In this document: in pieces, positions 12,445 through 35,221 of the stretch
Numbering within the stretch: the first letter of the stretch is position 1
Layout of the letters: every line of letters begins with the position of its first letter
Origin: Candidatus Bathyarchaeia archaeon
GTDB taxonomy: Archaea > Thermoproteota > Bathyarchaeia > Bathyarchaeales > Bathycorpusculaceae
Reading direction: 5' to 3'
Length of the DNA: 64,000 nucleotides
Assembly (NCBI GenBank): GCA_038883655.1
Contig: JAVZLQ010000001.1
Coordinates: forward strand, 192,001 to 256,000
The notes under the pieces: model-generated
Databases searched by the model: none
What the model was told of the DNA's origin: nothing
What the model saw: the letters and a program-made list of their open reading frames with translations, nothing else
Position numbers and translations under genes: made by a program

Positions 12445-12550
12445 CCTTTTCAAGTGCTATCTTTTGCATATTAAGAATAATAAAATTATTTGTTTTCGTC
12501 TTTGTGTGTCGCGAAATCTTTTAAAAAATATGATGTGTATACTTGTTTGG

Positions 12551-12646
12551 GCCTCGGTAGCTCAGCCTGGTGGAGCATCGCCTTGGTAAGGCGGTGGTCG
12601 CGGGTTCAAATCCCGCCCGAGAACCGCCGTGTGCGGTCGGGAAGCT
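12551..12646 (+). tRNA. tRNA-Thr(GGT) with 22-nt BHB intron in the acceptor stem (12622-12643, position 70/71)
   Basis: 5' strand GCCTCGG pairs with CCGAG|GC only after removing AACCGCCGTGTGCGGTCGGGAA; motif CCCG-AGA-ACCGC..GCGGT-CGGG-AAG; anticodon loop TT GGT AA. Confidence 0.88.
12578..12627 (+). repeat. attL (3' half of tRNA-Thr plus start of intron)
   Basis: tcgccttggtaaggcggtggtcgcgggttcaaatcccgcccgagaaccgc, identical to 17420-17469. Confidence 0.93.
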
Positions 12647-12826
12647 TTGGTTTGAACCCGCCTTGCCGCCGTTAGTGTTGTTTAGGGCGTTTTGGATGTT
12701 TAGGTTTGAGAGGTGGGCGATTGCTTGTTTTAGGGCGTTTTCTGTGAATTGTGAGATGTTTATGCCTAATTCTTTAGCTTTTTTGACTGTTTCGGCGTCT
12801 ATTGAAAGGGTTAGTTTTGTTTTCAC
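12578..12826 (-). CDS. Integrase N-terminal fragment int(N) with CcdA-like RHH domain (reads on to stop at 12521 when integrated)
   Basis: GTG start after AGGTGA; KTKLTLSIDAETVKKAKELGINISQFTENALKQAI, then att-encoded GSRAGFEPATTALPRR. Confidence 0.82.
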
Positions 12827-12870
12827 GTTCTCACCTACACGTATATTCACGTATGACAAATATTTACCAT

Positions 12871-13017
12871 TCACTCTTTTTTTTCTGTTTCGATGAGTTT
12901 GGCGATGGCGTATTCTATGGCGTGACTTCTATTAGCAAAGCGTAGTTTCTGCACTTGGTCATCTATCCATTTAACGAAGTCTTCTCTTATGGTTACGTAA
13001 ACTCTTATTTTTGGCAT
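12871..13017 (-). CDS. CopG/ribbon-helix-helix protein, 48 aa (not in ORF track)
   Basis: Manual translation MPKIRVYVTIREDFVKWIDDQVQKLRFANRSHAIEYAIAKLIETEKKE. Confidence 0.8.
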   Translation of the reverse strand: MPKIRVYVTIREDFVKWIDDQVQKLRFANRSHAIEYAIAKLIETEKKE

Positions 13018-13139
13018 TTCAACCATTCTTTTTTACCTTCCCATATGAGTAGTTTATCCACAACTATACTCAAATATACACAAATCTTATAGATTTTCCG
13101 TTCAAAAATAGGATTTGCCTTTAAGGTGAGTGTGAGAAA

Positions 13140-13358
13140 ATGGAAAAGACGGAAATCAGCTTCTTTGGAAAGAGAAAGTGGCATATTCCCAGAAAATATA
13201 TTGTGGTTTCAAAGCGTCTTTGCAGCAGAGAGTTTAAGAAGTTGAGGCAATGGTTAGACGATAAAGACAGAATAGAGATAGGCACGGATTCAGAAGGGCG
13301 AATTTGGATTTTAAACGAAACCAAAGTTGGAGAGCATTTAAAAAGACAAAATAATTAA
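13140..13358 (+). CDS. Small hypothetical protein (possibly AbrB-like)
   Basis: 72-aa ORF preceded by AGGTGA; DRIEIGTDSEGRIWI resembles the end of a swapped hairpin. Confidence 0.5.
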   Translation: MEKTEISFFGKRKWHIPRKYIVVSKRLCSREFKKLRQWLDDKDRIEIGTDSEGRIWILNETKVGEHLKRQNN

Positions 13359-13368
13359 GCGCTATTGC

Positions 13369-13749
13369 CTATTTGCCTTCCAGCTTCCCCTTTTTCTTGT
13401 CAAGAGAACTCTTATTAATTGGAATTTCCGAAGGACTGAAATTTAACAGTCTTGATAATGGCAGGTCTGCAATATCAAATTCTTGAACAAAAGTTTTAAG
13501 ATGTCGTGCAAGTTGCAGAACATCTGCTTCTGGACTGTAATAATAGGGTTGAAATTTATGTCTCAAAATTAATCCTTTATTGATGAGTTTGTTTATACTT
13601 CTGGTTAAAAGTCTGTTGAAGGTATCCTCAGAATAAAACTCTTTAAATTTCGGATAAACAGCATTAAAGATTTCTTTTCGAGATTGCCATTCAGAGCATT
13701 TTTTCAAATATTCTCGTATTGCGTTTTCTATGTTGTCCATTATGGACAT
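13369..13749 (-). CDS. Winged-helix-like protein
   Basis: SRKEIFNAV...LTRSINKLINKGLILR wHTH pattern. Confidence 0.6.
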   Translation of the reverse strand: MSIMDNIENAIREYLKKCSEWQSRKEIFNAVYPKFKEFYSEDTFNRLLTRSINKLINKGLILRHKFQPYYYSPEADVLQLARHLKTFVQEFDIADLPLSRLLNFSPSEIPINKSSLDKKKGKLEGK

Positions 13750-13796
13750 ATCTGACTGAATGACAATTTAAGACTTACTGACAAAGGTGTGTAAAC

Positions 13797-13949
13797 ATGG
13801 AAAAAGTTAGAATAAGCGTAAGAATTGATGGAGAAGACTTCAAAAGAATCCAGGAAACCATAAAGAAGGCGTATCCGACTTTACGGTCTATTTCAGACGT
13901 GGTTCGCCAAGCTCTGAAAGAGTTTTTAATAAAATATGAAAGTGTGTGA
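13797..13949 (+). CDS. CopG/ribbon-helix-helix protein, 50 aa (not in ORF track)
   Basis: Manual translation MEKVRISVRIDGEDFKRIQETIKKAYPTLRSISDVVRQALKEFLIKYESV; AGGTG upstream. Confidence 0.8.
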   Translation: MEKVRISVRIDGEDFKRIQETIKKAYPTLRSISDVVRQALKEFLIKYESV

Positions 13950-14135
13950 GTGTATGTGTGTGTATTATAGAATGTCTGTCTTGTCTTTCTTCTTTTCTTC
14001 TTTCTTCTTTACCCCTAATATACATATACATACACACATACACACTAAACACACACCTTCACTAAGAAAGCAAGTTAAGCGGCGGCGAAGCTCTGCTTCT
14101 TTTCCCATAATACACACACTCACACATACACACAC
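13942..14135. repeat. (GT)n/(AC)n inverted-repeat tract with internal pyrimidine run
   Basis: GTGTGTGTATTAT (13956-13968) is the exact reverse complement of ATAATACACACAC (14107-14119); further AC-rich block at ~14018-14057. Confidence 0.75.
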
Positions 14136-14152
14136 CCTTAAAGGTGATGTTC

Positions 14153-14398
14153 ATGGTTAGACGAGACGGAGCAGAAATAAGAAAAGAAAGAATTCAAGAA
14201 GTAATTAGACGAGTTGTCGCCCTTCTCTACAACCATGATGAAGTTGAACTAGAATCCACAGTCGCCATGCTTCAATACGAAACAGGATTAAGACCAGACA
14301 AAATAATGGAATACCTATCAATTGGAGACCAGCTTAAACGGTTCGAGCTTGACATAGACAAAAATAAAATTAGAAAAATAAAAGCTGATGAAACATGA
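14153..14398 (+). CDS. Small helical, probably wHTH DNA-binding protein
   Basis: AGGTGA RBS; VAMLQYETGLRPDKIMEYL pattern. Confidence 0.6.
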   Translation: MVRRDGAEIRKERIQEVIRRVVALLYNHDEVELESTVAMLQYETGLRPDKIMEYLSIGDQLKRFELDIDKNKIRKIKADET

Positions 14399-14520
14399 GT
14401 CTTTATGAGTTTGGTGTTTTGGTTCTTGTTCTCGTCGTGTTTTTCTAGTTGTTTTGGCATATCTGGTTAATGCCTTCTGGAGCTGGAAACTATGAGAACT
14501 AAAATTTTAATTCGCTATAA

Positions 14521-14748
14521 GTGGTGCAAAACCGCCATACTCTTTTACCCCTAATACTGTTTGTCATTGCAATATTAACAAGCATAGAACCGCACTTCTA
14601 TCCACTGTTCATATTCTTCTCAGTGGATTTTCTATTGATAGTTAGCGCCGCCTTCTACCTAATCGTTGAACATGGAATTAAAATCTTCAATAAATATGAA
14701 GATAAAGAGTTATATGGTTTATTGCAAAAAGCTGATAAATGGATTTAA
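14521..14748 (+). CDS. Small membrane protein
   Basis: Two hydrophobic segments. Confidence 0.5.
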   Translation: MVQNRHTLLPLILFVIAILTSIEPHFYPLFIFFSVDFLLIVSAAFYLIVEHGIKIFNKYEDKELYGLLQKADKWI

Positions 14749-14763
14749 CCTTATATTAGAAGG

Positions 14764-15072
14764 ATGACAATGAACATAAATAAGAGGGTTATAATTTTTA
14801 GCATATTGCTAATTTACTTTTTGCCTACATTGATTGAGTGGATTCAAATTTTTAATGAAACTTCCAAGTATGGTTATCCCCAAAGCAATAGATATTTTGA
14901 AATATTCTTAATATTCTTCCTATCATCTTTCATTTGGATGCCAATTGCAATATTTTTTTATTTCCCTACGCCATTAATATGGAAAATCAGTTTAGCTTCG
15001 TATTATATTATCGCCTACGGAATTTTGGCATGCATAATCCTTTACAAATATAGAAAAATTAGAAAAAATTAG
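14764..15072 (+). CDS. Small membrane protein
   Basis: Three hydrophobic segments, basic C-terminus; AT-rich. Confidence 0.55.
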   Translation: MTMNINKRVIIFSILLIYFLPTLIEWIQIFNETSKYGYPQSNRYFEIFLIFFLSSFIWMPIAIFFYFPTPLIWKISLASYYIIAYGILACIILYKYRKIRKN

Positions 15073-15075
15073 TTT

Positions 15076-16119
15076 TTAAATTCTATCAAAAAACCATTTC
15101 CCTAAAATTATGCCAAATAAAATCGTTCCAATAACAATCGCATAATTTTTGGGGTCTTCATACCATTTTTCTATTGAAGGGATGCTTTCCCCTTTAATTT
15201 GTGCAATATATTGTTTAGTTAAATTGTAAAGATAGTATGGGTCATTATTCCATGCATCACGGTCATAATGCGGTTCAATTGCTGTGCGCTCTGGGAATTC
15301 ATTCCAAGTAGCAATTGTTACAATATCAATTTTATTTGCCTTTGCATATTTGATAGCATCTTTCCATTCATTTTCATAAATTGGCAATGATAAATCTTTA
15401 TTTATTGTGTAATTAGGATAGCGCACATAAAAATCATCATATCGCGGACATAAAGGATACATTCGACAATAAGGTATATCGTAAAACTTGTTATTTTTCC
15501 ATGACTGATATGGTTCATATCCTTCAAAATGCGAATAAACAAAATTACAGAATGAAAAATGTCCAGAAAATTTTACGGTAAAACGGTCATCATATTGAAA
15601 TTTTGAAAAATCTGTTAAATTTGGAGCATTCCAAAAGAGAATTAATGGTTTGTTATCCATTATGAAACATAGGGAATAGTAAGGCAAAATATAATTTTCG
15701 TAAACGTAATCATAGATAGATTTATAATCGTAAATTCCAGATTGGTTAAAATCTTCAACCATCAAACAAAATTTAATGTTTGAAACTTGATTTTTTGCGC
15801 ATTCATAAACCAATTTAGCATTATTATCTATGTGATTGCCTATTCCCCACCATGAAATTATGACAAAATCTATTTTAAGGTCATTCCACCATTCTAAATG
15901 CTGATTAATAACCGTTATATTTCCGCTATTGTAATAACCTAAAATTGGTTTATCTTGATGCGTTGGGTATGACCAATTATAATAGGCATCTGGAGAATCG
16001 GGGTCATACCAAACATAATAGTATATGCCTACTTTGATTTTAGGCGTTTCTGAATAGGCGCATGGAATGCAAAGTAGCAAAAAACATAAAAAAAGGGGAG
16101 TTGAAGGGGGGACATTCAT
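15076..16119 (-). CDS. GH99/GH71-like glycoside hydrolase, secreted and membrane-anchored
   Basis: YYVWY, PILGYYNS, IISWWG, IATWNEFPERTAIEP (cf. GH99 NEWHEGTQIEP); signal peptide and C-terminal TM helix. Confidence 0.75.
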   Translation of the reverse strand: MNVPPSTPLFLCFLLLCIPCAYSETPKIKVGIYYYVWYDPDSPDAYYNWSYPTHQDKPILGYYNSGNITVINQHLEWWNDLKIDFVIISWWGIGNHIDNNAKLVYECAKNQVSNIKFCLMVEDFNQSGIYDYKSIYDYVYENYILPYYSLCFIMDNKPLILFWNAPNLTDFSKFQYDDRFTVKFSGHFSFCNFVYSHFEGYEPYQSWKNNKFYDIPYCRMYPLCPRYDDFYVRYPNYTINKDLSLPIYENEWKDAIKYAKANKIDIVTIATWNEFPERTAIEPHYDRDAWNNDPYYLYNLTKQYIAQIKGESIPSIEKWYEDPKNYAIVIGTILFGIILGKWFFDRI

Positions 16120-16585
16120 GTTTTTATACCGCCCTACGTAGTATTCCAATAGCTATGCCTAATAGCGCAATGCTGAATATTACATATATCCATTGCGATA
16201 TCATTACAGATGCAGATGAAGTCATACGTTTTAGGAATATTCCAAGAACAACCGTGCAGTTTGACCCTTACCGCATTGCCGTCTGGAAGTTGGAAAGTGA
16301 CAAAAAAACCATAGATATTATAGATAGAGACATAAAAATCGCATTAGATTATGTTAAGTTGGATTCGCATGAAGTCATGCAAAAATACGCTTTAAAAATA
16401 CCGTAGCGACTTAACATGGGCAGTCAAGCGCGGAATATCTAAACTCTATGATGTGGTAGTGCGTGTTGAGAGGAAACAAGCATTAGATAATTCTACAAAC
16501 ATGCTTTAAACATTGAAATTTTATGGAAAAGTTATCGCCTTTTCGAGGCGATTGAAGTTTGTGGAAATATAAAAAAGTAGGAAGT

Positions 16586-17469
16586 TTAAGTGATTTTAGA
16601 TTGTATTTCCGCTATGCCTTTGAACACTCTTTCCTTCAAATCGCTTATCAACGCGGGATTAAAGTAGTTCTGCATGAAAACGCTTATGCCTATCCGTCCA
16701 TGTATGAAATCGATTTCTGGCGGTTTAAGGTATTGAGTCATTAGGGTAGCGTGAGCTTCTCTTATGTCTCCAAATTTGCATTCTAATCCGCGTTTCTGTA
16801 GTCGTTGGAGAATTGCGTGTGCGCTTGGCAAGGGTTTACTACAACTTATCTTTTCAATTATTTCTTTTGGCATGAAGACAACAAAGCTCTTTTTTGTGCG
16901 TCTTATGAATTTGTTTTTAAACTTGTAGTTTTCCAAAGCACAATTTTCACAGTTGTAGTATTCGCTTAACTTTCCTTCTCTATGGAGCTGGATTATCAAG
17001 TTGTAGCTTTCCACTGCTTCAACTAACCGCATACCGCTATACGTAATGAAATCAAAGAATAACGCCAAATCTGGAAAATCCGCCTTAATTTGTTTAACCC
17101 ACTGGAAAATGCTTTCTGGGTCTATAACCTTTGTTAATCGTTGAATCAAAAGGTCATCTTTCGCCTTTCCACTCCATTTCAAACCGTAGCTTCTAACTAG
17201 TTGTTTGAACTTCTCGTAAACTCCCAAATACTTCGCTAACACACTTAACGCCTTCAACACGTGACCACGCTTGTCATCACTTAAAACCATCAAATCACTC
17301 AAGTTCTCACTAACCAAACAATGCGCATACTGTCTAGCATAACTGAACCTTTCCCTCGCCCTATTACGCTTATACAACTTCAACAAATACTCAAAGAAAC
17401 CATCCCAATCAATCAAAAGTCGCCTTGGTAAGGCGGTGGTCGCGGGTTCAAATCCCGCCCGAGAACCGC
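16586..17469 (-). CDS. Tyrosine recombinase catalytic fragment int(C), SSV1-type
   Basis: YSGMRLVEA, RRTKK, DIREAHAT, IDFIHGR, MQNYF; frame continues through att (ALPRR-LLIDWDGF). Confidence 0.9.
17420..17469 (+). repeat. attR (duplicate tRNA-Thr 3' half; variant intron continues to 17485)
   Basis: 50 bp identical to 12578-12627, then a different 5-nt loop and 14 more identical bp. Confidence 0.93.
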
Positions 17470-17815
17470 TTTGGGCGGTCGGGAAGCTCTGATTTGAACT
17501 CGCGATCGCATTCGCTTCATTGTTTAGTGCTTGTTTTTAAGCCAATACTGATCTATCCCCCTAGGATTCTTTAGAAAATGGTGTATAGCCACAGCCTTAT
17601 TTTCCCTACCCCTCCCTCTAGGCATAAGACATCCAAAAAGTGTAGATCGTTAATTAGCCTTAGATCTGCACGTATAGTTAAAGATTCACGAGCAAATTGA
17701 AGGGCAGAAGTAAAAATGATAATTTTGAATTAGATGTCTATAAGGCGCATTTAGCCATAAATGTTTTCGAAAATCTTAAATGAAAATGATTTGATAACGT
17801 CTAAATGGTGTTATA

Positions 17816-18379
17816 ATGTCTAGAAAGGAATTTATTTATAAACTACCTCGTACATTCGAAGTTCTTGACGAAGAGGAACTTTCTCGAGATATACCCAAAC
17901 TGGATTTAGAGGAAGTTTATTTTGATGAAGTCAAAGAAGGGGATTTATCGATCATGAAAGTTCCTGTCACCTCCAAGATTGTTAAGTTATTTGCTATGAT
18001 TAGTGGAGATTATAATCCTCTTCATGTGGATGAGGAATTTGCAAGGACGCTTCCTCCAAAACTTTTTGGTGGAAAAAATATAGCGCATGGGATTCTTTTA
18101 AACTCTTTTTTAAGCGCGTTGATTACGCTTTCCTTTGGGAAAGGAGTAACGTTACTAGAATGGAAAGATCAGAAATTCAAAAGGCCTGTGAAGGTTGGAG
18201 ACACAATAACGGCAAAGCTTGAAGTTGTAAGGAAGTATACAGAAGTTGTAAAGGAAAAAGAGAGACTATTCCTCGAATTAAAAGGATCAATTTTGACCTC
18301 TTCGGAAGAGGGGGAGATAGAGGCAACAAGTTGCTTAATTCTTGTCACATTATTTAAGAAGTCAAGAAAATTAATGTAA
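17816..18379 (+). CDS. MaoC-family (R)-enoyl-CoA hydratase/dehydratase
   Basis: FAMISGDYNPLHVDEEFA, IAHGIL, FKRPVKVGDTI. Confidence 0.88.
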   Translation: MSRKEFIYKLPRTFEVLDEEELSRDIPKLDLEEVYFDEVKEGDLSIMKVPVTSKIVKLFAMISGDYNPLHVDEEFARTLPPKLFGGKNIAHGILLNSFLSALITLSFGKGVTLLEWKDQKFKRPVKVGDTITAKLEVVRKYTEVVKEKERLFLELKGSILTSSEEGEIEATSCLILVTLFKKSRKLM

Positions 18380-18396
18380 CATGTCATAGCGGTTTA

Positions 18397-19188
18397 TCAT
18401 TGTTGCTCCTTGATAAATTGTAATGCTATGTTGTTGAATTCTTCTGGACGTTCCCAGATTACCGCGTGCCCTGAATTCTTTATTGCGACAAAACGCGATC
18501 CTTGTATTTTGTTATGAATTATTTTAGAGTACTTTGGAGGCTTTATTTTATCATTTTCTGCAGCAATAATTAATGTCGGCTTTTTGATTTTGTAAAGTTC
18601 AGGTGTTATATTTAACTGCATAAAACCCTTTAGCAATTCAATAAAAGCATCAATGTCAACTGCGGTGTCATAAATTGGGGCTGTGCCACTCACGAAATCC
18701 CACCTTTTTTCTATGAACTCGTCAGAGAAAATATCCGGATAAACCGCTTGGAAAAGATACTTTCCACTTCTGAGTCTAGCCGCAATTAGCCATCTCTCAA
18801 CTATGGCTTTGACCACTGGATCTACGTGGCTTACTGCACAAGACACAATTAAAGATTTCACCATCTCCGGATATCTCGTTGCAAAGATTAAGGCAACCTC
18901 TCCGCCGAAAGATATTCCAACAATGTGGGCGCTTTGTATCTTTAGTTTCTGCATTAGTGCCCTAAGATCTTCTACATGAAGCTCCATAGGATATTTCATT
19001 AATGGCTTTTCCGATTTCCCTTGCCCCCTAAAATCTAACAAGAGCGTTTGAAATTGTTTTGCAAAATAGGGCACTTGATTCATCCAGCTTGAAGTGTTTG
19101 CAAGTATTCCGTTAAGAAAAACTATTGTTTCGCCGGCACCATGCAGCTCATAATACATTTGAATATCGTTTATTTTAGCGTAGGGCAT
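18397..19188 (-). CDS. Alpha/beta hydrolase
   Basis: DFRGQGKS, nucleophile elbow GISFG, SGH; start MPYAK at 19188. Confidence 0.88.
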   Translation of the reverse strand: MPYAKINDIQMYYELHGAGETIVFLNGILANTSSWMNQVPYFAKQFQTLLLDFRGQGKSEKPLMKYPMELHVEDLRALMQKLKIQSAHIVGISFGGEVALIFATRYPEMVKSLIVSCAVSHVDPVVKAIVERWLIAARLRSGKYLFQAVYPDIFSDEFIEKRWDFVSGTAPIYDTAVDIDAFIELLKGFMQLNITPELYKIKKPTLIIAAENDKIKPPKYSKIIHNKIQGSRFVAIKNSGHAVIWERPEEFNNIALQFIKEQQ

Positions 19189-19216
19189 ACGGGCTACCTC
19201 CCCATTTCCATTTATG

Positions 19217-20755
19217 TTAACCATATTTTTCGATAAGCTTTTCCCGCAAAATTTTGCCAGCTGGAGTTTTTGGTATAGAATCCACATATTCTATAACTTT
19301 TGGAATTTTGTATTTTGCCATTTTGTCTTCACAATATTTGATAACTTCTTCTTTGCTCAGTTTTTCTCCAGCTTTCAACGCAATTAACGCTTTAGGAACT
19401 TCTCCCCATTTTTCATCCGGAATTCCGAAAACAACTGCTTCCTGTATTTTCGGATGGGAACTAAGTATTCTCTCGATTTCTTCCGGATAAATGCTCTCGC
19501 TTCCGCTCCTTATCACGTTTTTCTTTCTACCTACTATGTAAAAGAAACCTTCCTTGTCATATTCGACTATGTCGCCAGTATGAAGCCACCCATCTTCTAA
19601 CGCTCTTGATGTCTCTTCAGGGTTGTTCCAATAACCCCCAAAAAGCGATGGTGCTCTTATGAGAAGTTCGCCAGGAGTATTAGGAGCCACTTCTTCTCCT
19701 TTATCGTTTACTACTTTAACGTCGATCAGAAGGTTGGGTTTTCCTATGGAACCCATTTTATTTATTGCGTCTTTGGGGTCTAGTGCAAAAACCCCTGGTC
19801 CTGCTTCTGTAAGGCCGTATCCTTGCTTTACTAAGACACCCTTTTTCAAGAAGGCATCAACAATGTCCTTAGTCAGAGCAGCTCCTCCCGTCGTAAACCA
19901 ACGGACAGAGGTAAGGTCGGCTGTCTTAAACTTTGGCGATTCTATAAGCATCTTAAGTTGGGTGGGTACAAGAAACTGGAAAGTGACTCTCTCCTTTTCA
20001 ATCAGTTCTAGAAGCTTTTCTGGGTTCCATCTATACATGAGTATATTTGTGCCTTGCCAAAAAAGTAATGGCAATGTGTATGTGTATCCACCAATGTGAA
20101 ATAGTGGAACGCATGTGACAGTAACTTCGCCGGGCACTATTAAGTCCCTAATAGTTATCATAGCATTCCAAAATATCATTCTGTATGGTATAATTGCGCC
20201 TTTCGGTGTTCCAGTTGTTCCTCCAGTCTGCAAAATCATGAATGGGTCTTCTAAATTAACTGGTGTCGGTTTGTCTAATCTTTCCTCATAATCTACTAAA
20301 TTCTCAAAATCTATCGAATCTATTATGTGGCTCTTTCCTAAATGCACGAGCCAACTGCCTTTTATCTTTTTTAAATCTTCAACTTTTTCGGTAAATTCTT
20401 CTTCGTATATGAGAACTTTAGGCTTGATTAGTGTTATTTGCTCCTCTATCTCTCTAGATGTATATCTAGTGTTGACTGGTATGAAGATACCGCCTATTTT
20501 TGTTGTTGCAAATAGTGCATCCAGCATTTCTATGCGATTCCATGAGATCATCGCAACTCTATCGCCTTTTTTAAGTTTTAATTCGTTCTTAAAGAAAGCA
20601 GCAATTCCATCTACTCTTTCACTGAAAACCTTGTAAGTGAATCGTCTTTCACTTTTTTCATCTATCAAAGCAACGTGATTTGGGTTTATTTTTGCATGCT
20701 GAGCTATCCAGTTATTAACCCAGTAGCCTTGTGTTGCAACGTTTTCTACGTTCAT
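19217..20755 (-). CDS. Acyl-CoA synthetase / long-chain fatty acid-CoA ligase
   Basis: QTGGTTGTPKG, QGYGLTE, WLHTGD, PKTPAGK. Confidence 0.92.
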   Translation of the reverse strand: MNVENVATQGYWVNNWIAQHAKINPNHVALIDEKSERRFTYKVFSERVDGIAAFFKNELKLKKGDRVAMISWNRIEMLDALFATTKIGGIFIPVNTRYTSREIEEQITLIKPKVLIYEEEFTEKVEDLKKIKGSWLVHLGKSHIIDSIDFENLVDYEERLDKPTPVNLEDPFMILQTGGTTGTPKGAIIPYRMIFWNAMITIRDLIVPGEVTVTCVPLFHIGGYTYTLPLLFWQGTNILMYRWNPEKLLELIEKERVTFQFLVPTQLKMLIESPKFKTADLTSVRWFTTGGAALTKDIVDAFLKKGVLVKQGYGLTEAGPGVFALDPKDAINKMGSIGKPNLLIDVKVVNDKGEEVAPNTPGELLIRAPSLFGGYWNNPEETSRALEDGWLHTGDIVEYDKEGFFYIVGRKKNVIRSGSESIYPEEIERILSSHPKIQEAVVFGIPDEKWGEVPKALIALKAGEKLSKEEVIKYCEDKMAKYKIPKVIEYVDSIPKTPAGKILREKLIEKYG

Positions 20756-20769
20756 ATCTCTTCCTTTAA

Positions 20770-21765
20770 TTATATCCATCTAAATAATGCGGCAGACATC
20801 ACGTATCCTACGCCAGAAGTGCAGAAGCACACAAGGTCATCTTTCTTAATTTTCCCTTGTTCCAGAGCGTCATGCAACGCGAATATCACGCATGCCGACC
20901 CGTTATATCCATATTTGTCCATTATCCAGTGAGTCTTTGTTAAGGGTAGGCCAAGTTCCTTCATAACATCCTTTATTGTATTTACGTTTACCTGCGTCAT
21001 CAATATCATATTTAAGTCTTCTACCTTATATCCCGCTTTCTTCACGGTGTCTCTAATAAGCTGAGGCCAATGCGCAAAGTTTATATCCGCTGGGTAGCGA
21101 TGACCACTTTCATGAAATCGTAAATAATGTTTTTTCTCTTCCACCATTTTGATGGTTATTGGGTTAGCTGTGCCCACGTAAATGCCGTAACAGTCCCAGT
21201 AACTTCCGTCAGCAATAATTTTTGAAGTTATATATCCAGGCTTATCCGAGGCGGTCAATATTACTGCTCCAGCACCATCGCTAAAAATCGGGGCTAGCCA
21301 CTTTTCGTTCCAGTCAAGCCACTTAGTCATTCCATAGGATCCTGTTACAAGTACATAATTTATGCTTGGGTCATTCATAATGTAGTTTGATGCTATAGAA
21401 AGAGCGATGGGCACGTCTGTACAAGCGGCATTAATATCGAAGCAACCTGCATTTTTGGCTCCAAGCTTGTGTTGAATAACGGCTGATGTTGGTGGACTTA
21501 CAAAGTCGGGAGTATCAGTAGCTAAGATAAGGAGATCTAAATCTTCTGGCTTTAAATTTGCATTTTTAAGTGCGTGTCGAGCTGCTTCTACAGCCATATC
21601 AGAAGTAGCCTCGTTAGGTTCTGAAATGTGTCTTAAAGTGATTCCTGTTCTTGGGCGAAGCCATCCATCAACATCAAATCCTATTCGTTTTCCTAATTCT
21701 TCGTTTGTTTCAACTTTTTTCGGTAGGTAAATTCCTGTGCTCAAAATTTTTGCGTATCTATTCAT
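20770..21765 (-). CDS. fabH: 3-oxoacyl-ACP synthase III (FabH)-like protein, atypical active site
   Basis: TGIYLP, DINAACT, FSDGAGA; His and Asn positions read LMTQVN and YGYNGS. Confidence 0.8.
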   Translation of the reverse strand: MNRYAKILSTGIYLPKKVETNEELGKRIGFDVDGWLRPRTGITLRHISEPNEATSDMAVEAARHALKNANLKPEDLDLLILATDTPDFVSPPTSAVIQHKLGAKNAGCFDINAACTDVPIALSIASNYIMNDPSINYVLVTGSYGMTKWLDWNEKWLAPIFSDGAGAVILTASDKPGYITSKIIADGSYWDCYGIYVGTANPITIKMVEEKKHYLRFHESGHRYPADINFAHWPQLIRDTVKKAGYKVEDLNMILMTQVNVNTIKDVMKELGLPLTKTHWIMDKYGYNGSACVIFALHDALEQGKIKKDDLVCFCTSGVGYVMSAALFRWI

Positions 21766-21777
21766 ATCTCCAATCTC

Positions 21778-22542
21778 CTAAATTTTTATTTTATGTAGAA
21801 ATTCTTCCAATAAGCTATTGAATTTTTCTGGGGCTTCTCTATTCGGCAAGTGCCCAACGCCTGGTATTATTTGCAAGATTGATCCCTGTATGGATTTGCT
21901 TATTGTTTCGGCGGAGCTTACTGGAGTGACTATGTCAAGATCTCCTACTATTATAAGTGTTGGAACTTTGATTTTCGGCAAGAGTTCGGAGTAGTCAAGC
22001 ATGGACGTTGCCTCTGCTGATTGAATGTAGACGTCTTTTCTGGTTCCTGCAATCATCTTTGCTACTTCTTCTTTGAGTTGTTCTGGTGCATTCGCAGCGA
22101 GGGCGAATGTGGCTACTTCAGCGCCAATTATTTCCATGCTCATGCCTTCTAAGACTGCAGTTTGTGCTGGTGGAAATTTGTGTCTAGCAGCCACTAAGAT
22201 CATGCTTAAAAAGTAGTCTGGATATTTTTTGTACATTTCAAAAAGAACTAATGCGCCCATTGAAAGACCGCAAAAATGCGCCTTTTTTATCCCTAAATGG
22301 TCAAGTAGACTTTTGACATCCTCTGCAAAATCTTCAATTTCGATTTTCTTTTTTGGGGTACTTGACTTTCCATGCCCTCGCAAGTCCAAAGCAACAACCC
22401 TGAATTTTTCAGAAAAAAAGTTAACTTGGTGTCTCCAACTCTCAAGAGATTCTCCTAACCCGTGAATAAAAACAATGTTTTCAGATCCTGTTCCCTCGAA
22501 CACGTAGTTTATCTTTACGCCGTTTATTTCAACTTGAGGCAA
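21778..22542 (-). CDS. Alpha/beta hydrolase (PcaD-like)
   Basis: FIHGLG, DLRGHGKS, GLSMG, GVGHL. Confidence 0.88.
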   Translation of the reverse strand: MPQVEINGVKINYVFEGTGSENIVFIHGLGESLESWRHQVNFFSEKFRVVALDLRGHGKSSTPKKKIEIEDFAEDVKSLLDHLGIKKAHFCGLSMGALVLFEMYKKYPDYFLSMILVAARHKFPPAQTAVLEGMSMEIIGAEVATFALAANAPEQLKEEVAKMIAGTRKDVYIQSAEATSMLDYSELLPKIKVPTLIIVGDLDIVTPVSSAETISKSIQGSILQIIPGVGHLPNREAPEKFNSLLEEFLHKIKI

Positions 22543-22635
22543 GCAAAGTTCTCCCCGACATATAATTCTAGATTAGTATTTTTGGCATTTGTAATTATTT
22601 AAATCTAATTGCATAGTTTGTCGGTTATTAACGTT

Positions 22636-23358
22636 CTAAATACTTACTCCCAAATGCTTTCTTATCAATTCTTTATCTTCCGCCACATCTTCCATATTAC
22701 CATGGTGAACTATTTTGCCCATTTCCAGAATGTAACATTCATCTCCAACTTCTCTTGCCAATTTGAAGCTCTGCTCCACTAAAATCATTGTGACTTGCTC
22801 TTTAAGTTTAACCAATGTTTCTGAAAACTTCTTTACAAGGATAGGGCTTAACCCCTCTGTTGGCTCATCAATTAAAAGGAGCTCGTTTTTATTAATTATT
22901 GCACGGGCAATCAGCAGCATTTTTTGTTGTCCACCGCTTAAATTATGAGCTTTATCTTTCAACATATTTTTTAGATTTGGAAATATGTCGAAAATGAATT
23001 GTAACCTTTCTTTATAGGAATCTTCTGGGCCTTTGAATGCTATTTGAAGGTTTTCTTCAACTGTTAGCTTACCAAAAATTTTTCTTTGAGAGGGAACATA
23101 AGCGATTCCCTTCCTTGCGATTTCGTACGTGGGTAATTTTGTTATTTCTTCTCCCTTGAAGATTACCTTTCCTGACTTGGTGGGAATAATATTCATTATG
23201 CTTTTAAGCAGAGTTGTTTTACCTGCACCATTTCTTCCAAGTATTACAGTTAACTTGCCTTTTTCAGCAGCGAATGATACTCCTTGAAGTATGTGAAATG
23301 GACCAATATAGGTGTGCATGTCTTCGACGTGCAGCAACCCCACTTTAGTCTCCTCCAA
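22636..23358 (-). CDS. livF: Branched-chain amino acid-type ABC transporter ATPase
   Basis: GRNGAGKTT, LSGGQQKML, IDEPTEGL. Confidence 0.88.
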   Translation of the reverse strand: MEETKVGLLHVEDMHTYIGPFHILQGVSFAAEKGKLTVILGRNGAGKTTLLKSIMNIIPTKSGKVIFKGEEITKLPTYEIARKGIAYVPSQRKIFGKLTVEENLQIAFKGPEDSYKERLQFIFDIFPNLKNMLKDKAHNLSGGQQKMLLIARAIINKNELLLIDEPTEGLSPILVKKFSETLVKLKEQVTMILVEQSFKLAREVGDECYILEMGKIVHHGNMEDVAEDKELIRKHLGVSI

Positions 23359-24106
23359 GGTAAACTTTTTGAACTAATTCATTTTCGGCAATTTCTTTTG
23401 GAGTACCATCCGCAATAACAGCCCCTTCATGCATAACCATAACCGAGTCACATATGCCCATAATAACATCAATCTTGTGTTCAACGAGAAGAATTGTAAT
23501 TTTTGAATTCTGCTTTATTTTTCGTATTGCATTCACAACGTCTGGCACTTCCTCCATCGATACGCCTGCAGTAGGTTCATCAAGCAACAGAAGTTCTGGA
23601 TCTGTTGCGATTGCCATGGCAATTTCAAGTTTTCTTTGATCGCTATGCGGCAAGAAATTTACTGGATAAAATGCTTTTTGTTTTAAACCAATGCTTTCTA
23701 GAATTTCAAGGGCTCTTCTGTGATATTCTTTAAAGCGATCTATGCTAGAATAGAAATTGTAGTTTTCTCTTCCTATCGATTGTACGGCTAATCTTACATT
23801 TTCTAAGACTGATAATCTTGCAAAGACATTTGTTATTTGAAATGATCTGCTAATTCCTTTTTTAGAAATTTTGTTTGGTGGCAATCCAGTAATATCTTCT
23901 CCTTTAAAGAATATCCTTCCACTAGTGGGTTTCAGGAGTCCACAGATTAAGTTAAATAGCGTCGTTTTTCCAGCTCCGTTGGGGCCTATTAAGCCTTTGC
24001 AAATTCCTTGTTCTATGGTAATGCTGACGTTGTTAACTGCTGCCAATCCGCCGAATTTTTTGGTTAAGTCCCTTGTTTCTAATATAGCGCTGCTTAAATT
24101 CGTCAT
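23345..24106 (-). CDS. livG: Branched-chain amino acid-type ABC transporter ATPase
   Basis: FGGLAAV, GPNGAGKTT, LLDEPTAG, VEH. Confidence 0.88.
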   Translation of the reverse strand: MTNLSSAILETRDLTKKFGGLAAVNNVSITIEQGICKGLIGPNGAGKTTLFNLICGLLKPTSGRIFFKGEDITGLPPNKISKKGISRSFQITNVFARLSVLENVRLAVQSIGRENYNFYSSIDRFKEYHRRALEILESIGLKQKAFYPVNFLPHSDQRKLEIAMAIATDPELLLLDEPTAGVSMEEVPDVVNAIRKIKQNSKITILLVEHKIDVIMGICDSVMVMHEGAVIADGTPKEIAENELVQKVYLGGD

Positions 24107-24107
24107 T

Positions 24108-25340
24108 CTATTTACCTCTTATAGAAGTTTTTATTAATGTCGCTATTTTTTTGATGTTTTTCTTTACAGACACTCTCTTTAGTTTCCACGTAATTACAAT
24201 GCCGTATGGGAAGAATAATATTACAACTATGTAGAATACGCCCAAAACCAGCATCCAATACTCTCCAATACCACGAATGCTTGTCAACTCATTTGCTAAA
24301 AGCGTGATTATCCCTGCGCCAAGCATGGGTCCGACCAATGTGCCTAAACCGCCGAGGATGTTGTAAAGCAGTATATTTATCATGATAGCAGAGCTTAGAA
24401 CACTGTATGGGCTGATGCTTAGGGCAAAGGGAGTGTAAAGTGCTCCAGCCAGGCTTGCAAACATGCTTGAAATGATTGAAGCAATTAACTTGTAAATTGG
24501 CACGTCATAACCCAACATTTTCGTTCTTTCCTCGTTTTCTCTAATAGCCACAAATATTTTACCCATTGGAGAGTCTATGATTCTCTTTGCAATGAGGTAA
24601 CATATTGCAATAGGAAGTAAAGCGATAAGGTAGTATGTGTTCGTGACCATTATCATCGTGTTTTTCTCCCTGATTGATCCCTCTAGAAGGATATTCAGTT
24701 TCGATGGAAAACTGTAGATTAATATCGCAAGAACTGCTGCTATGAAAGCGCAATATGCGATTTTGTTCTTGATAGCTTTATTCTTATTTGCCAAGTCACG
24801 TAATATGGTCAAAAATAGCATAATCACTATTGCGATAGAAATTACAAACATCGCGTAGATAATTAAATCGAATCTTAAAAATTCGGGTCTTGGAACAGAA
24901 AGTCCGGTTTCGCCCCCTGACAGTTCAACCCATTTGTTGAAAATTGCGAAAATCATCTCTGCAAAGGCCAGTGTAACTAATGCATAGTATATTCCGCTAA
25001 CTCTGAAGGTGAAGATGCCTAATGCCAGCCCAACTAGCGCGCCAAATAATATTGCTATCAAAACAGCTAAGAGAAAGGGAAAATTCATCCTTAAAAGTAA
25101 TGCGACCACATAAGCGCCGATGCCGAATGGTGCAGCATGGCCAAAACTTACCAAACTTGTGTAGCCCAAGGCTAAGTCGTAGCTCATAGCGAGTAACGCC
25201 CAAATGAGCATTTCTGTTAGCAGTGATAAGTAATACACGGAAGGCGTTGCTATCGGAAAAGTAAACAATAATGCGAAGCTTGCCAGCAGAAGTTTCTTTT
25301 TTGTCAAAACTTCAAAGCTGCGTTTGATGATTTTGATCAT
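24108..25340 (-). CDS. livM: Branched-chain amino acid-type ABC transporter permease
   Basis: VSFGHAAPFGIGAY, AIRENEER, GGLGTLVGP. Confidence 0.86.
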   Translation of the reverse strand: MIKIIKRSFEVLTKKKLLLASFALLFTFPIATPSVYYLSLLTEMLIWALLAMSYDLALGYTSLVSFGHAAPFGIGAYVVALLLRMNFPFLLAVLIAILFGALVGLALGIFTFRVSGIYYALVTLAFAEMIFAIFNKWVELSGGETGLSVPRPEFLRFDLIIYAMFVISIAIVIMLFLTILRDLANKNKAIKNKIAYCAFIAAVLAILIYSFPSKLNILLEGSIREKNTMIMVTNTYYLIALLPIAICYLIAKRIIDSPMGKIFVAIRENEERTKMLGYDVPIYKLIASIISSMFASLAGALYTPFALSISPYSVLSSAIMINILLYNILGGLGTLVGPMLGAGIITLLANELTSIRGIGEYWMLVLGVFYIVVILFFPYGIVITWKLKRVSVKKNIKKIATLIKTSIRGK

Positions 25341-25341
25341 A

Positions 25342-26178
25342 TTATTTTCCCACGCCAAATAGTCCTTCTGTTCTTATCAGTAGAACAATAGCCATCGCCA
25401 GAAAGTCAATAACAAAAGTTAGTTGAGGGAAGAAATATTCTGAGAGTCCATGAAGCATTCCAATTATGAGGCTCCCATAAAAAGAGCCCTTAAAGCTTCC
25501 TAATCCGCCAACCACCGTTACAACTAGGCTAGTGAACATCCATGTCGACCCCATCTGTGGCGTTGCTCCGAGCCAAGGTACTGCAGAAGCCCCGCCGAAA
25601 GCGGCTAGTAAGGCTCCGAATCCAAATGTTAACGTGAAAACTCTTTTTATGTTGATGCCTAAAGCTTCCACCATCTCCGCATCCTCTGTTCCTGCTTGGA
25701 CGATTATGCCCATTTTGGTTCGAGTTAAAAGTAGATATGTAAAGACAGCAATCATGAAACCGAGGAATGCGAGAAAAGTTCGATATGCTGAACCACTAAG
25801 GTATGGCAGATAGAAAATTTTTGGTGTGCGTCCCCAAATTATTAGCACAAGTTGAGAGAATAAGAGTAAATAGCCCAATGTAAGCATTATTTGAGCTATT
25901 GGATTGCCATGTACACGGCGAAGGGTTAAGCGTTCGACTATTACCCCTATCAAGAAGCCGAAAAAGGCTGCGCAGATTAATGCAACAGCAAAATTGTTAG
26001 TTAATTCGAAAAATGTTACGGCAATGTAGGCTCCTATCATGAAAAAGGCTCCATGGGCAAAGTTTAGGATTCCCATTAAACCAAATATTATGGAGAAGCC
26101 AGATGCTATGAGAAAGAGTAGCATTGAGTAAGCTAATCCATCTAGAATTGCAGCTGCGACCAGATTTGGATCAATCAT
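25342..26178 (-). CDS. livH: Branched-chain amino acid-type ABC transporter permease
   Basis: GLMGILNFAHG, VVGGLGSFKG. Confidence 0.88.
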   Translation of the reverse strand: MIDPNLVAAAILDGLAYSMLLFLIASGFSIIFGLMGILNFAHGAFFMIGAYIAVTFFELTNNFAVALICAAFFGFLIGVIVERLTLRRVHGNPIAQIMLTLGYLLLFSQLVLIIWGRTPKIFYLPYLSGSAYRTFLAFLGFMIAVFTYLLLTRTKMGIIVQAGTEDAEMVEALGINIKRVFTLTFGFGALLAAFGGASAVPWLGATPQMGSTWMFTSLVVTVVGGLGSFKGSFYGSLIIGMLHGLSEYFFPQLTFVIDFLAMAIVLLIRTEGLFGVGK

Positions 26179-26280
26179 GTGAAAATCTCCAGTTCATGTG
26201 GCTGAGCTAAAATTTTATATTAAAAAAGGTTTATAAAACTTGTTTTAATCATAGTTTGAAGCTTAGGGGAGTAAAAACTA

Positions 26281-28179
26281 TTGAACGCAAAAATTAAAAG
26301 CATTATAGCTTGTGCGATTTCACTTCTGGTGTTAAGTTTGTTGTTTTCATCGCGAGCGAAGTTTGCCTTTTCACAAGGCACAGGTCCAATTAAGATTGGT
26401 GTAATTACGGACCTTTCTGGTGCGCTTGCATATTATGGAGAGATGGAGGTGAACGGTCTTTACCTTGGAATAGAGTACGCTACTGGTGGAACTTTTAAGG
26501 TTTTAGGCAGAGACATACAAATAATTGTTGAAGACGATGTAGGGAATCCAACACAAGCTGCATCTAAGGCAACAAAGCTGATTTTGCAAGATGGCGTGGA
26601 CTTCCTTCAAGGGTGCGCTAGTAGTGCATGCGCAAGCGCGGTTCAAGCTGTAGCTGCGCAATATGGCGTAATATTCATGGTTGCTCCCGCTGCGGATGAG
26701 AAAATTACTGGCGAAGGATATAACCGGTATACTTTTAGAACTGCAAGCAGCACTTGGCATGACGCCTTTACGGGTGGAGCCTTTGCAGCTACATACATGG
26801 GAAAAACATTTGCCTTTTTGGCACCAGATTATTCATGGGGTTACAGCACTGTTAAATGTTGGAAGTATGTCATCGAGAAATATGGTGGGCAAGTTATACA
26901 CGTTGAGTATGCGCCTACAACCACGGTAAATTTTGCACCTTACCTTAACAGAATAATATCTGCGGATCCTGACTGCTTCATACCAGTTTGGTCAGGAACT
27001 GGAGCAATGTATATGTTTCAAGCGATGGCTGACCTTCATATTTATGACTATATGAATGTAACTTCCGGAATTGGTGATCTTTTCAGCCTCCAACTTTTGA
27101 ATGTAGCCATAAACTTTACTGGAATGACCAAGTACGCCTATTTGCTTCCAAATAACACCGTTAACGATTGGCTTGTGAACACATGGAGAGTCAGATATGA
27201 TGCAGGTACATTGCCAAGAAAAACGTCCATGACGCTTCCTGTACCCGATCTGTTCGTGGAAAGCGCATTTGCAGCTGGTCAAGCAATAGTTTACGCAATC
27301 CAGCAGGCTGGAACCATTAACACGGAGATTTTGATATCTACTCTTGAGGGCTTGAATTTTACTGGTCCAAAAGGAAATATGTATATTAGGCCAGAGGATC
27401 ACCAAGCCTTGCAAAGCATGTATATTGCTCAGGTTTTTAATGATACAACTTCTTGGATAACAAACTACTATCCTAATGGATTTATAAATTTGAGACTAGT
27501 AGCGGAAATTCCACCAGAATTTACGGCTCCGCCAATTAGAGGAGACATAACTCCTCCCACTATAACTAATGTTGCTAATACGCCTAGCATACCCACCCTC
27601 ATTGATGACGTCAATATCACCGCAACGATTACAGATGACCTTACTGGAGTCAAAAATGCAAGCGTATACTATTCTATAGATGGTGGTCTTAACTGGTCTC
27701 AAGTTCCAATGCAACACATTGGAGATTCAACATACAAGGCAACAATTCCAAAACAAGAGGACGGCACAGTTGTACAATACTATGTAAACGCTGCAGACAT
27801 AGCGCTAAACACCAACCAGTCAGCTATTTACGTGTACACGGTTGCAGACTTGCCCAAATATTACTTGACCATATCGGTTCAACCGGCAAATGGAGGAACC
27901 ACCAACCCGCCAGCTGGTACTGTAAGCTACACAGAAGGCGAGAACGCAGCCGTGACGGTTACAGCCGCAGAAGGGTTCGAGTTTGACTATTGGGAACTTG
28001 ACGGAGTTAAAATCAATATTACAGCAACAACGTATGTTGTGCCGATGTATGCAAACCATACGCTTATTGCGTATATGAAAGTTAAGCAGGGAATACCAAC
28101 AGAGTGGCTCATAGGCGGCGCAGTCGCTGGAATAGCAATAATCGTACTAGCCGTTGTATTTCTAAAGAAAAGAAAATAG
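26281..28179 (+). CDS. LivK-type ABC substrate-binding protein with C-terminal Ig-like domains and TM anchor
   Basis: Signal peptide, IKIGVITDLSG, GPKG..IRPEDHQA; DITPPTI domain, InlB-B-like repeat, TM plus KKRK tail. Confidence 0.85.
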   Translation: MNAKIKSIIACAISLLVLSLLFSSRAKFAFSQGTGPIKIGVITDLSGALAYYGEMEVNGLYLGIEYATGGTFKVLGRDIQIIVEDDVGNPTQAASKATKLILQDGVDFLQGCASSACASAVQAVAAQYGVIFMVAPAADEKITGEGYNRYTFRTASSTWHDAFTGGAFAATYMGKTFAFLAPDYSWGYSTVKCWKYVIEKYGGQVIHVEYAPTTTVNFAPYLNRIISADPDCFIPVWSGTGAMYMFQAMADLHIYDYMNVTSGIGDLFSLQLLNVAINFTGMTKYAYLLPNNTVNDWLVNTWRVRYDAGTLPRKTSMTLPVPDLFVESAFAAGQAIVYAIQQAGTINTEILISTLEGLNFTGPKGNMYIRPEDHQALQSMYIAQVFNDTTSWITNYYPNGFINLRLVAEIPPEFTAPPIRGDITPPTITNVANTPSIPTLIDDVNITATITDDLTGVKNASVYYSIDGGLNWSQVPMQHIGDSTYKATIPKQEDGTVVQYYVNAADIALNTNQSAIYVYTVADLPKYYLTISVQPANGGTTNPPAGTVSYTEGENAAVTVTAAEGFEFDYWELDGVKINITATTYVVPMYANHTLIAYMKVKQGIPTEWLIGGAVAGIAIIVLAVVFLKKRK

Positions 28180-28243
28180 AGCTCGCGGAAAGCGCACAAA
28201 TCTTATTAATTTATAACTTAAAATAATACATTCGGGTTATAAC

Positions 28244-29785: not shown

Positions 29786-29861
29786 ACCTAACAAACCTCA
29801 CTTTTCTTTTTCACTTCAACATAAGAAACTGTAATATAAGATATTCTCAACTAGTTTAAGT

Positions 29862-31721: not shown

Positions 31722-31796
31722 TCTACAAATTTTCTATAAAAAAGTTCCACAAAACCTTTATAAAATTAATCAACAATATAACCTCACGGTGTTCTT

Positions 31797-33530: not shown

Positions 33531-33797
33531 CCCCCTTTTTACTTTATTCAAAAATGCTTCATGTCATTGTAAAATGAACATGCACCACGAGGCCTTCATT
33601 ATTGATTTTAATAAGCACACCGAGTTGAAATGAAAGAAATTTCTGTTAACAGACTAACGGAAAGTCTTTCGTTAAGTATGTTTTGAGATGCATACTGCTG
33701 GCGGATTGCTTATGCTTTTGGGTGGGATATTAACGTTAATAGGCGTATACATTGAAATAGGAATTGGGTTGTTCCCAAGTGATTAGGCGTGATGTAG

Positions 33798-34256: not shown

Positions 34257-34261
34257 CGGCA

Positions 34262-35219: not shown

Positions 35220-35221
35220 CC

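Follow-up and report, generated by a model that had tools for sequence, protein, structure and literature searches.

Probable gain of a tRNA-Thr(GGU) intron through integration of a split-integrase element in Bathyarchaeia

For archaeal tRNA introns at odd positions, the proposed route by which an attachment site brings an intron into a tRNA gene has rested on one population study of 2012. In that study (Sugahara et al. 2012, PMC3293823), tRNA-Thr(GGU) of Caldiarchaeum subterraneum is described as having gained an intron through recombination of an intron-containing attP with an intron-free attB, and the authors suggested that the intron might protect the integrated element from rivals. A later review (Badel et al. 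2021, PMC8371274) restates the intron-gain model as a proposal. Here we analyse a stretch of 64,000 nt (the window) from contig JAVZLQ010000001.1 of a Candidatus Bathyarchaeia archaeon, in which the 3' part of a tRNA-Thr(GGU) gene overlaps the left end of a 4.8-kb element with a split integrase and is interrupted by 22 nt between positions 70 and 71. The analysis indicates that the gene probably gained an intron through integration of such an element.

In SSV1-type ('suicidal') integrases, known from fuselloviruses and related archaeal elements, attP lies inside the int gene (PMC3293823), and structures of this type are available (3vcf, 3uxu, 4dks). Non-canonical bulge-helix-bulge (BHB) and HBh' introns are known from Thermoproteota, with 'intron transposition' in Thermoproteales (Sugahara 2008, Fujishima 2010). 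According to the hypothesis of Randau and Soll 2008, as cited in PMC4090602 and PMC3293823, tRNA introns shield tRNA genes from integration. In Thaumarchaeota, Krupovic et al. 2019 describe 10 tRNA genes with introns as targets of integration, and the available part of that paper makes no claim of intron delivery. The available part of a 2026 preprint on Asgard archaea reports no mobile-element signal near intron gains. A full-text literature search found no account of a BHB intron within the att site or reading frame of a split integrase, and none of this element family in Bathyarchaeia.

The present locus is reminiscent of the Caldiarchaeum case, as given in PMC3293823, in that tRNA-Thr(GGU) is affected in both, the element acts as the probable vector of the intron, and a displaced tRNA fragment marks the event. 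The Caldiarchaeum intron lies at 24/25 and goes with the 5' part of the tRNA, whereas the intron here lies at 70/71, in the acceptor stem, and goes with the 3' part. The Caldiarchaeum insertion is 1.9 kb long, with a putative recombinase and a pNOB8-like dinucleotide content, whereas the element here has a recognisable SSV-type split integrase with the intron inside its frame. The evidence there consists of three clone types from one population; here it comes from four genomes of three genera and from metagenome contigs, and includes covariation and an intron that persists after loss of the element. The initial annotation of the window proposed, as one of two options, a mechanism of intron gain by site-specific integration. 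The mechanism is supported; it had already been put forward in 2012 for Caldiarchaeum, and the present locus is a better-documented variant and not a new category.

The interrupted tRNA-Thr(GGU) gene and its intron-less relatives

The window belongs to a metagenome-assembled genome (MAG; G000) that is 93% complete with 6.5% contamination. It was compared with relatives (among them G003, G063, G144 and G470, likewise MAGs, as are all genomes used) and with metagenome contigs (L326, L327 and L330). Pattern scans were exact, so that diverged forms are missed, and counts refer to the genomes searched. The tRNA gene comprises the following features.

12551..12621, plus strand: tRNA-Thr(GGU) exon 1, positions 1-70 (ARAGORN; Rfam, 52 bits, model positions 3-68)
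12622..12643, plus strand: candidate intron, 22 nt, position 70/71, BHB-type fold (sequence, geometry script, covariation, relatives)
12644..12646, plus strand: tRNA exon 2, namely G71, C72 and the discriminator U73, of element origin (in relatives GCT follows CCGAG without a gap)
36448..36458, plus strand: displaced original 3' end of tRNA-Thr(GGU), without intron (reads CGCCCGAG then GCT (CGCCCGAGGCT), with the ancestral trailer behind it; BLAST with the G003 locus)

The gene adjoins tRNA-Leu(UAG) on the opposite strand (ARAGORN, Rfam). The tRNA body is regular up to G70 at 12621 (...CCCGCCCGAG; ...CCGAG), and GCT at 12644-12646 corresponds exactly to the acceptor-stem residues that are missing opposite and after the 5' end GCCTCGG. 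Excision of 12622-12643 yields CCGAG-GCU with a 7-bp acceptor stem, the sequence found in all 24 relatives compared. Exon 1 is 99-100% identical to tRNA-Thr(GGU) of G003, G063 and G144; among G000, G063 and G144 its 71 nt are 100% identical, with flanks at ~79%. In these last three genomes the intron-bearing gene is the only tRNA-Thr(GGU) found.

The tRNA-Thr(GGU) genes of relatives are contiguous at this position. Specifically, 24 of 24 genes (24 of the 29 best loci from 40 relatives, G003 included) read CCGAG-GCT at 70/71, and three of them contain an ordinary anticodon-loop intron. Among 332 family genomes, the contiguous form is present in 112 and the intron form in 4, which represent three genera. 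A class-wide sample gave the intron form in 3 of 401 genomes (0 of 297 outside the family), and order-wide BLAST of 401 genomes found read-through only in G000, G063 and G144. The matches listed by a 14-nt pattern scan of genomes and viral contigs are unrelated G+C-rich bacterial and viral DNA, and a 21-nt pattern gave zero matches in viral contigs. The same 21-nt pattern gave five matches in metagenome contigs, two of which, L328 and L329, are not tRNA-Thr genes: both were set aside as intron-bearing tRNA-Thr candidates, L328 because ARAGORN calls no tRNA in it and L329 because it appears bacterial. L328 (4900-5010) has the anticodon stem-loop of tRNA-Thr as an inverted copy and, behind it, a tRNA-Thr 3' part that continues as AATGACACC instead of GCT; this may be another att arrangement or a rearranged gene.

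The original end of the gene lies further downstream in the window. G003, a genome of the same genus, has the 5' flank of the window and an intron-less gene, and its DNA 3' of the tRNA is collinear with the window from 36448 onward, with 84% identity over 2.4 kb and continuing to 45989 (by BLAST, positions 2196-4526 of L084, the G003 locus, match G000:C1:228448-230814). As judged from this comparison, 36448-36458 is the original intron-less gene end, shifted 24 kb by inserted DNA. Loss of DNA from G003, as opposed to gain in G000, was rejected because G000 holds a duplicate tRNA end at 36448 and the G003 gene is intact. The initial annotation had raised the possibility that the element family itself introduces the intron. 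The relatives free of the element, all 24 without a 70/71 intron, favour such delivery, as do the displaced intron-less end and the constant association of the intron with the integrase described below.

The 4.8-kb element and its split integrase

A direct repeat (D5; 12578-12661 and 17420-17503, 84 nt, 93% identity) brackets 4.8 kb. The first 50 nt of the two copies are identical, and the six differences consist of three in the intron loop and three in the trailer. A 26-nt core occurs twice in the window, with 0 occurrences expected from 100 shuffles.

12521..12874, minus strand: Int(N), N-terminal part of the split integrase, a ribbon-helix-helix (RHH)/CcdA-like domain with linker (open reading frame (ORF); PF07362 CcdA, 33.6 bits)
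12578..12661, no strand assigned: attL, left copy of the 84-nt repeat, from the anticodon stem to 15 nt beyond the tRNA end (repeat D5)
16586..17419, minus strand: Int(C), catalytic part of the split integrase, its frame running on through attR (PF16795; SSV1-like model)
17420..17503, no strand assigned: attR, right copy of the repeat, with a second intron at 17464-17485 (loop UUUGG) and GCT at 17486-17488 (repeat D5, sequence)
17504..17536, minus strand: Int(N) linker remnant, left by an older related element (tblastn, translation)

Int(N) (12874..12521) and Int(C) (down to 16586) are both encoded on the minus strand, in one frame through attL and attR. The Int(N) linker is the antisense of the trailer, exon 2, the intron and the tRNA 3' half, without a stop codon (...NGGKAGSNQSFPTAHGGSRAGFEPATTALPRR...; ...GGKAGSNQSFPTAHGGSRAGFEPATTALPRR), and past the crossover the ORF extends into host tRNA sequence. 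The initial annotation had described this DNA as being in triple use, as att site, as tRNA 3' part with intron, and as integrase codons. The sequence at attL agrees with that description, and the ORF 12874..12521 contains the stop-free peptide that was assigned to the integrase.

Int(C) is a 276-aa catalytic domain that matches PF16795 with 36.7 bits (cut-off 27; E 4.8e-9; residues 126-288). The search for integrase homologues returned 498, which are named integrase in Bathyarchaeia records; a majority of the 120 listed have PF16795, and homologues that are not split (349-383 aa) contain both PF07362 and PF16795. Candidate catalytic residues (R..K..R..Y), namely R159, K204/K205, R248, R270 and Y280, are invariant in 28 sequences. 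The structure model of Int(C), with a predicted local distance difference test score (pLDDT) of 86, matches an archaeal Xer in Foldseek (4a8e, E 9.6e-4). It also matches the SSV1 catalytic domain (3vcf_A/3uxu) with probability 1.00, a template-modelling (TM) score of 0.67-0.68 (target length) and a root-mean-square deviation of 4.1-4.3 over ~180 columns. The integrase is of the SSV type, has attP inside its gene, and is split upon integration.

Similarity to SSV1 thus comprises PF16795, the fold of the catalytic domain, attP within the ORF, and integration at a tRNA 3' part that gives Int(N) and Int(C) overlapping the att copies. The core held in common with the intron-less tRNA (12578-12621) is 44 nt long, which equals the SSV1 core length given in PMC3293823. 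Unlike SSV1, the element has a CcdA/RHH-like N-terminal domain (PF07362), a Bathyarchaeia host and a tRNA intron in an att arm, and a PDB sequence search with the integrase protein and with the 28-sequence profile gave zero relatives. An unsplit integrase protein of 352 aa, P0003, from a 3.8-kb contig, has the linker CGSRAGFEP, which an intron-bearing attP could encode; at intron-less sites the encoded sequence is PRAGFEP. A related-locus search with P0003 in viral contigs gave zero relatives. A second integrase of the same family lies at G000:C5:8126-9013; it is 50% identical and has one in-frame TAA.

The interrupted gene would then have arisen as follows. An element with an SSV-type tyrosine recombinase and with attP inside the integrase gene would integrate and thereby split that gene. 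Recombination with the 3' part of the host tRNA-Thr(GGU) would take place within the 44-50 nt of identity, from the anticodon stem to G70. Instead of G71, the element arm of attP would continue with the 22-nt BHB intron, then G71-C72-U73, then the trailer, and on the other strand intron, exon 2 and trailer would double as the integrase linker. The rebuilt tRNA gene would gain a 70/71 intron that is absent from the ancestral gene, and because it carries this intron, the cell would have to excise it by splicing endonuclease and ligate the exons of its only tRNA-Thr(GGU). In the window, the left part of exon 1 is host DNA, and everything right of the crossover, which lies within 12578-12627, is element-derived.

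The intron is linked to the integrase in other hosts as well. Every intron copy with downstream sequence (in four genomes, L327 and L330) is followed directly by GCT, the conserved trailer and the Int(N) frame. The 22-nt intron in attL of G063, G144 and G470 is identical to that in the right arm of attR of the window. Int(N) behind the intron is intact in G144 and G470, and is truncated in G063, where further element genes are present. The host-side 5' halves of the intron-bearing tRNAs differ in the D arm, which indicates separate hosts.

These genomes differ in the state of the element. In G470, an intron-bearing attL lies at the end of contig C8, while contig C19 starts with an attR that reads INKPRAGFEPATTALPRRESETT... 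(KPRAGFEP) on the minus strand, has no intron, and continues into Int(C), with a different host trailer; this pair is the expected product of recombination between an intron-bearing attP and an intron-less attB. G063 has an intron-bearing attL (C10), an intron-less attR (C8), and an Int(C) pseudogene broken by stop codons. In G144 the element is down to 681 nt (intron, GCT, Int(N) and one gene), after which the host trailer resumes; no Int(C) was found within 13 kb, and the intron has outlived its vector. The stages seen in real genomes are an intron-less ancestor, a fresh integration (attL with intron, attR without), tandem re-integration, and a decayed element that leaves the intron behind.

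A different kind of integrase also occurs at this site. In G063 a 427-aa PF00589 integrase (L083 6103-7386, minus strand, from G063:C8) takes its first residues (MARRWSRVQIPPEA) from the tRNA-Thr 3' part, read in sense. It lies immediately beside the intron-less attR of the split-integrase element, so that two unrelated integrase types use one tRNA end in tandem.

Several observations weigh against intron gain through integration. The attR of the window also holds the intron, so that the immediate target of the present element was intron-bearing and this element is not itself seen converting an intron-less gene. In L326 the intron is followed by a host-like trailer, with the contig ending 7 nt later, and a native intron in some lineage is a possible source of the attP copy. 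The attL and attR of G470 and of G063 lie on different contigs, no Int(C) remnant was found beside the displaced end, where only 8 nt of core are left, and no free (unintegrated) attP was seen as DNA, P0003 being a protein only.

The first two of these observations would be expected if the host had a native 70/71 intron and the element copied the tRNA 3' end, with no gain by integration. Moreover, attP sites of tRNA-targeting integrases generally derive from host tRNA sequence. For this genome, the displaced end at 36448-36458, intron-less and with a G003-like trailer, contradicts such capture. It is also at odds with the 24 relatives that have no 70/71 intron, with the occurrence of the intron in 4 of 332 family genomes from three genera, always with Int(N) behind it, with the right arm of attR, which continues into the Int(N) remnant and not into host trailer, and with the intron-less attR of G470 and G063. 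Capture as the whole explanation is therefore unlikely. The initial annotation had offered, as its other option, that the element copied the host intron and so can rebuild a working tRNA; this holds for the present 4.8-kb event, whose target already bore the intron, and fails as the sole origin because of the displaced intron-less end.

Fold and variants of the 22-nt insertion

The BHB geometry was taken from Yoshihisa 2014 (PMC4090602), namely a 4-bp helix between two 3-nt bulges with cleavage after the second bulge base; in the canonical BHB described there, the first two anticodon bases lie inside the helix. In the window, C65-G68 pair with intron nt 17-20 at all four positions of the central helix (CCCG/CGGG), the bulges are A69-G70|A and A-A|G71, and the inner helix is formed by intron nt 2-6 with nt 12-16, leaving a loop of 5 nt (nt 7-11). 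This geometry (4/4 central helix and at least five inner pairs) is matched by 31 of 200000 shuffles of the 22 nt.

The same fold is present in all seven copies, which represent five distinct intron sequences. Specifically, 7 of 7 have a 4/4 central helix, the bulges AG|A and AA|G (AU|G in L326) and exon 2 GCT, with an inner helix of 5-9 bp. The two intron copies of the window differ at three positions, all inside the 5-nt loop. The intron of L330 is also 22 nt long, and its fifth inner pair is U:A instead of C:G; that of L327 is 28 nt long, with a 9-bp inner helix of different sequence, and that of L326 is 29 nt long, also with a 9-bp inner helix.

Over seven alignable pairs, 42 of 42 cells are paired, and 2 of the 3 alignable inner pairs are changed on both sides. 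The observed covariation value is reached by 17 of 500 column shuffles, and slid controls are worse, with 17-63% paired. With six distinct rows in the alignment, this covariation is modest when taken alone; further weight comes from the U:A pair of L330 and from the extended helices in L327 and L326. The differences in intron length are not multiples of three, and the L327 integrase reads the tRNA part in another frame (GRDLNPRPPPYQ), which argues that the conserved feature is the RNA fold and not the peptide. The RNA-level covariation indicates that the intron is probably under selection while also being integrase coding sequence. BHB pairing in homologous att sites, which the initial annotation had tied to such selection, is kept in other hosts through compensatory changes.

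Two tRNA splicing endonuclease genes (PF01974) are present in the genome, at G000:C1:274439-274690 (106.7 bits) and at 5122-5376 of the window, plus strand (90.1 bits), and G000 has many further intron-containing tRNA genes. The two paralogues and the many interrupted tRNAs would fit the broad-specificity two-subunit enzyme that PMC4090602 describes for related phyla. In these respects, and in being short, at a non-canonical position and of relaxed BHB form, the insertion resembles the HBh' introns of Thermoproteota as described in the sources cited above. It is unlike the intron transposition described for Thermoproteales in that its source is an integrase att site and not another tRNA gene of the genome. 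A tRNA-Arg(UCU)-like gene at 2133-2225 of the window (plus strand) was missed by ARAGORN and is partial in Rfam (model positions 9-63, 29.1 bits); ~18 nt appear to interrupt its D-arm region and are likely a further non-canonical intron.

It is also conceivable that the 22 nt are not an intron, that integration damaged the tRNA end, and that the hairpin is an integrase linker or an att feature, such as a protein-binding site, while another tRNA copes. The following points would speak for this and against excision. No tool (ARAGORN, Rfam) makes an automatic intron call, and ARAGORN instead gives a 75-nt tRNA (12551-12625) with the final acceptor pairs mismatched. The outer helix of the BHB motif comprises at most one pair (G64:C72), so that the strict hBHBh' form is not found and the motif is of the relaxed HBh' form, which is known for organisms with alpha2-beta2 endonucleases (PMC4090602); this motif faces competition from the T and acceptor stems. 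Single-sequence folding energies are no better than those of shuffles (z -0.59, -0.26, -1.54). In the minimum free energy structure the register is slid by one, with A69 instead of intron A2 pairing with U16, which would give a wrong tRNA, and covariation does not separate the correct from the slid register. No RNA runs that contain the locus are listed. Finally, G000 is incomplete and may have an unassembled second tRNA-Thr(GGU), ARAGORN finding one tRNA-Thr of any anticodon.

These points are outweighed by others. Excision of exactly 22 nt restores the sequence of the relatives. The BHB geometry and the splice sites are kept in five variants of differing length and frame via compensatory changes. 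Exon 1 and GCU are intact in four genomes, including G144, from which most of the element is gone, and no other tRNA-Thr(GGU) was found in G000, G063 or G144. A damaged tRNA end is thus quite improbable; the 22-nt insertion is a predicted intron, and we infer that it is spliced in vivo.

An origin of the repeat and of the intron-bearing junctions in chimeric metagenome assembly or binning, for which one could cite that all genomes are MAGs and that contigs of public runs break at the att repeats, is very hard to credit, since the junction occurs in four independently assembled genomes and three metagenome contigs, each with its own host tRNA 5' part, since contigs of run X1 cover 12598-12922 and 16656-17449 with zero differences from the window, and since the window sits within a contig of >400 kb.

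The public runs that contain the locus are labelled hot-springs metagenome. The contigs of four such runs are short pieces broken at the att repeats; no circular-element joint, empty site or spliced form was seen in them, a result that is uninformative either way.

History of the locus and neighbouring features

If the intron was gained through integration, more than one element took part at this locus. The right arm of attR continues into 11 codons of another Int(N): residues 61-99 of Int(N) match 17536-17420 of the window in tblastn with 74% identity (E 3e-14). The intron in attR and this remnant imply that the 4.8-kb element entered a gene already converted by an earlier relative. We infer that an earlier related element brought the first intron copy and that the 4.8-kb element integrated later, with its crossover left of 12628.

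17537..36447, no strand assigned: stretch of ~19 kb from the element to the displaced tRNA end (comparison with same-genus genomes)

The 19-kb stretch is nearly absent from three same-genus genomes. It contains acyl-CoA/fatty-acid genes, an ABC transporter, PQQ-repeat proteins and, at its right end, a frameshifted winged helix-turn-helix (wHTH) gene. This last gene (35969-36447; 36010-36447 compared) is 93% identical to a gene of G063:C8 (L333 238-688), with host flanks at ~79%, and ends at the displaced CGCCCGAGGCTT in both the window and G063. The corresponding island of G063 abuts CGCCCGAGGCTT at its right end and holds the PF00589 integrase at its other end. The 19-kb stretch appears to be the remains of further integrations, of the earlier relative and perhaps with other DNA; neither an Int(C) remnant nor a PF00589 integrase was found in it.

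The locus bears on the hypothesis of Randau and Soll, as cited above, in that the intron is no block to this element family: it leaves the 44-nt core intact, and the gene that bears it was entered by a second element. An intron need not, therefore, protect a tRNA gene against integration. The intron does split CGCCCGAG-GCTT, a short sequence bordering a different type of element at the tRNA end; in G063 this sequence adjoins the PF00589 integrase, and the island of G063 and that of the window both have it at their right end. The intron might accordingly be a tool of competition between elements, which breaks CGCCCGAG-GCTT of the rival type and leaves its own 44-nt core intact, although we regard this as a doubtful, speculative reading. 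If it were true, an element would exclude rivals while the site stayed open to its kin, and decay would leave a fixed non-canonical intron; if it were general, split-integrase elements would be a main source of acceptor-stem and T-arm introns in Thermoproteota.

For the host, the consequence would be that its only tRNA-Thr(GGU) depends on splicing of an element-derived sequence. Annotators should be aware that genes of this kind come out of standard tRNA finders as intact, albeit mispaired.

The interior of the 4.8-kb element contains the following features.

12662..16585, no strand assigned: element body with small RHH/wHTH-like ORFs, small membrane ORFs, a GH99-like gene and a cut-down gene copy (ORFs, Pfam, G+C profile, BLAST to G063)
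15076-16149: GH99-like gene, low in G+C, with a signal-peptide-like start (Pfam, G+C profile)
16062-16406: truncated copy of a gene with 259 aa in G063 (BLAST to G063)

In contigs from two further hot-spring runs (X2, X4), position 14619 is joined to 16395 through 11 other letters, and 1775 nt are skipped. These contigs are without the low-G+C block (14620-16394 of the window) that holds the GH99-like gene, and this block looks like cargo acquired by the copy of the element in the window. With one gene truncated relative to G063 and a block that is missing from the variant contigs, the 4.8-kb element looks worn. A CA/TG-rich simple repeat lies inside the element at 13939-14140, with HTHT/CVCV runs in several frames; contigs of the public runs break there.

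Further repeats and a broken gene lie in the 19-kb stretch. Three large PQQ/beta-propeller repeat proteins are encoded at 28244-33530, with repeat units of 120-123 nt (families D1-D4). At 34262-35219, TackOD1 (PF18551) is split over two overlapping ORFs, which match profile positions 11-112 and 112-188 and probably represent a frameshifted gene.

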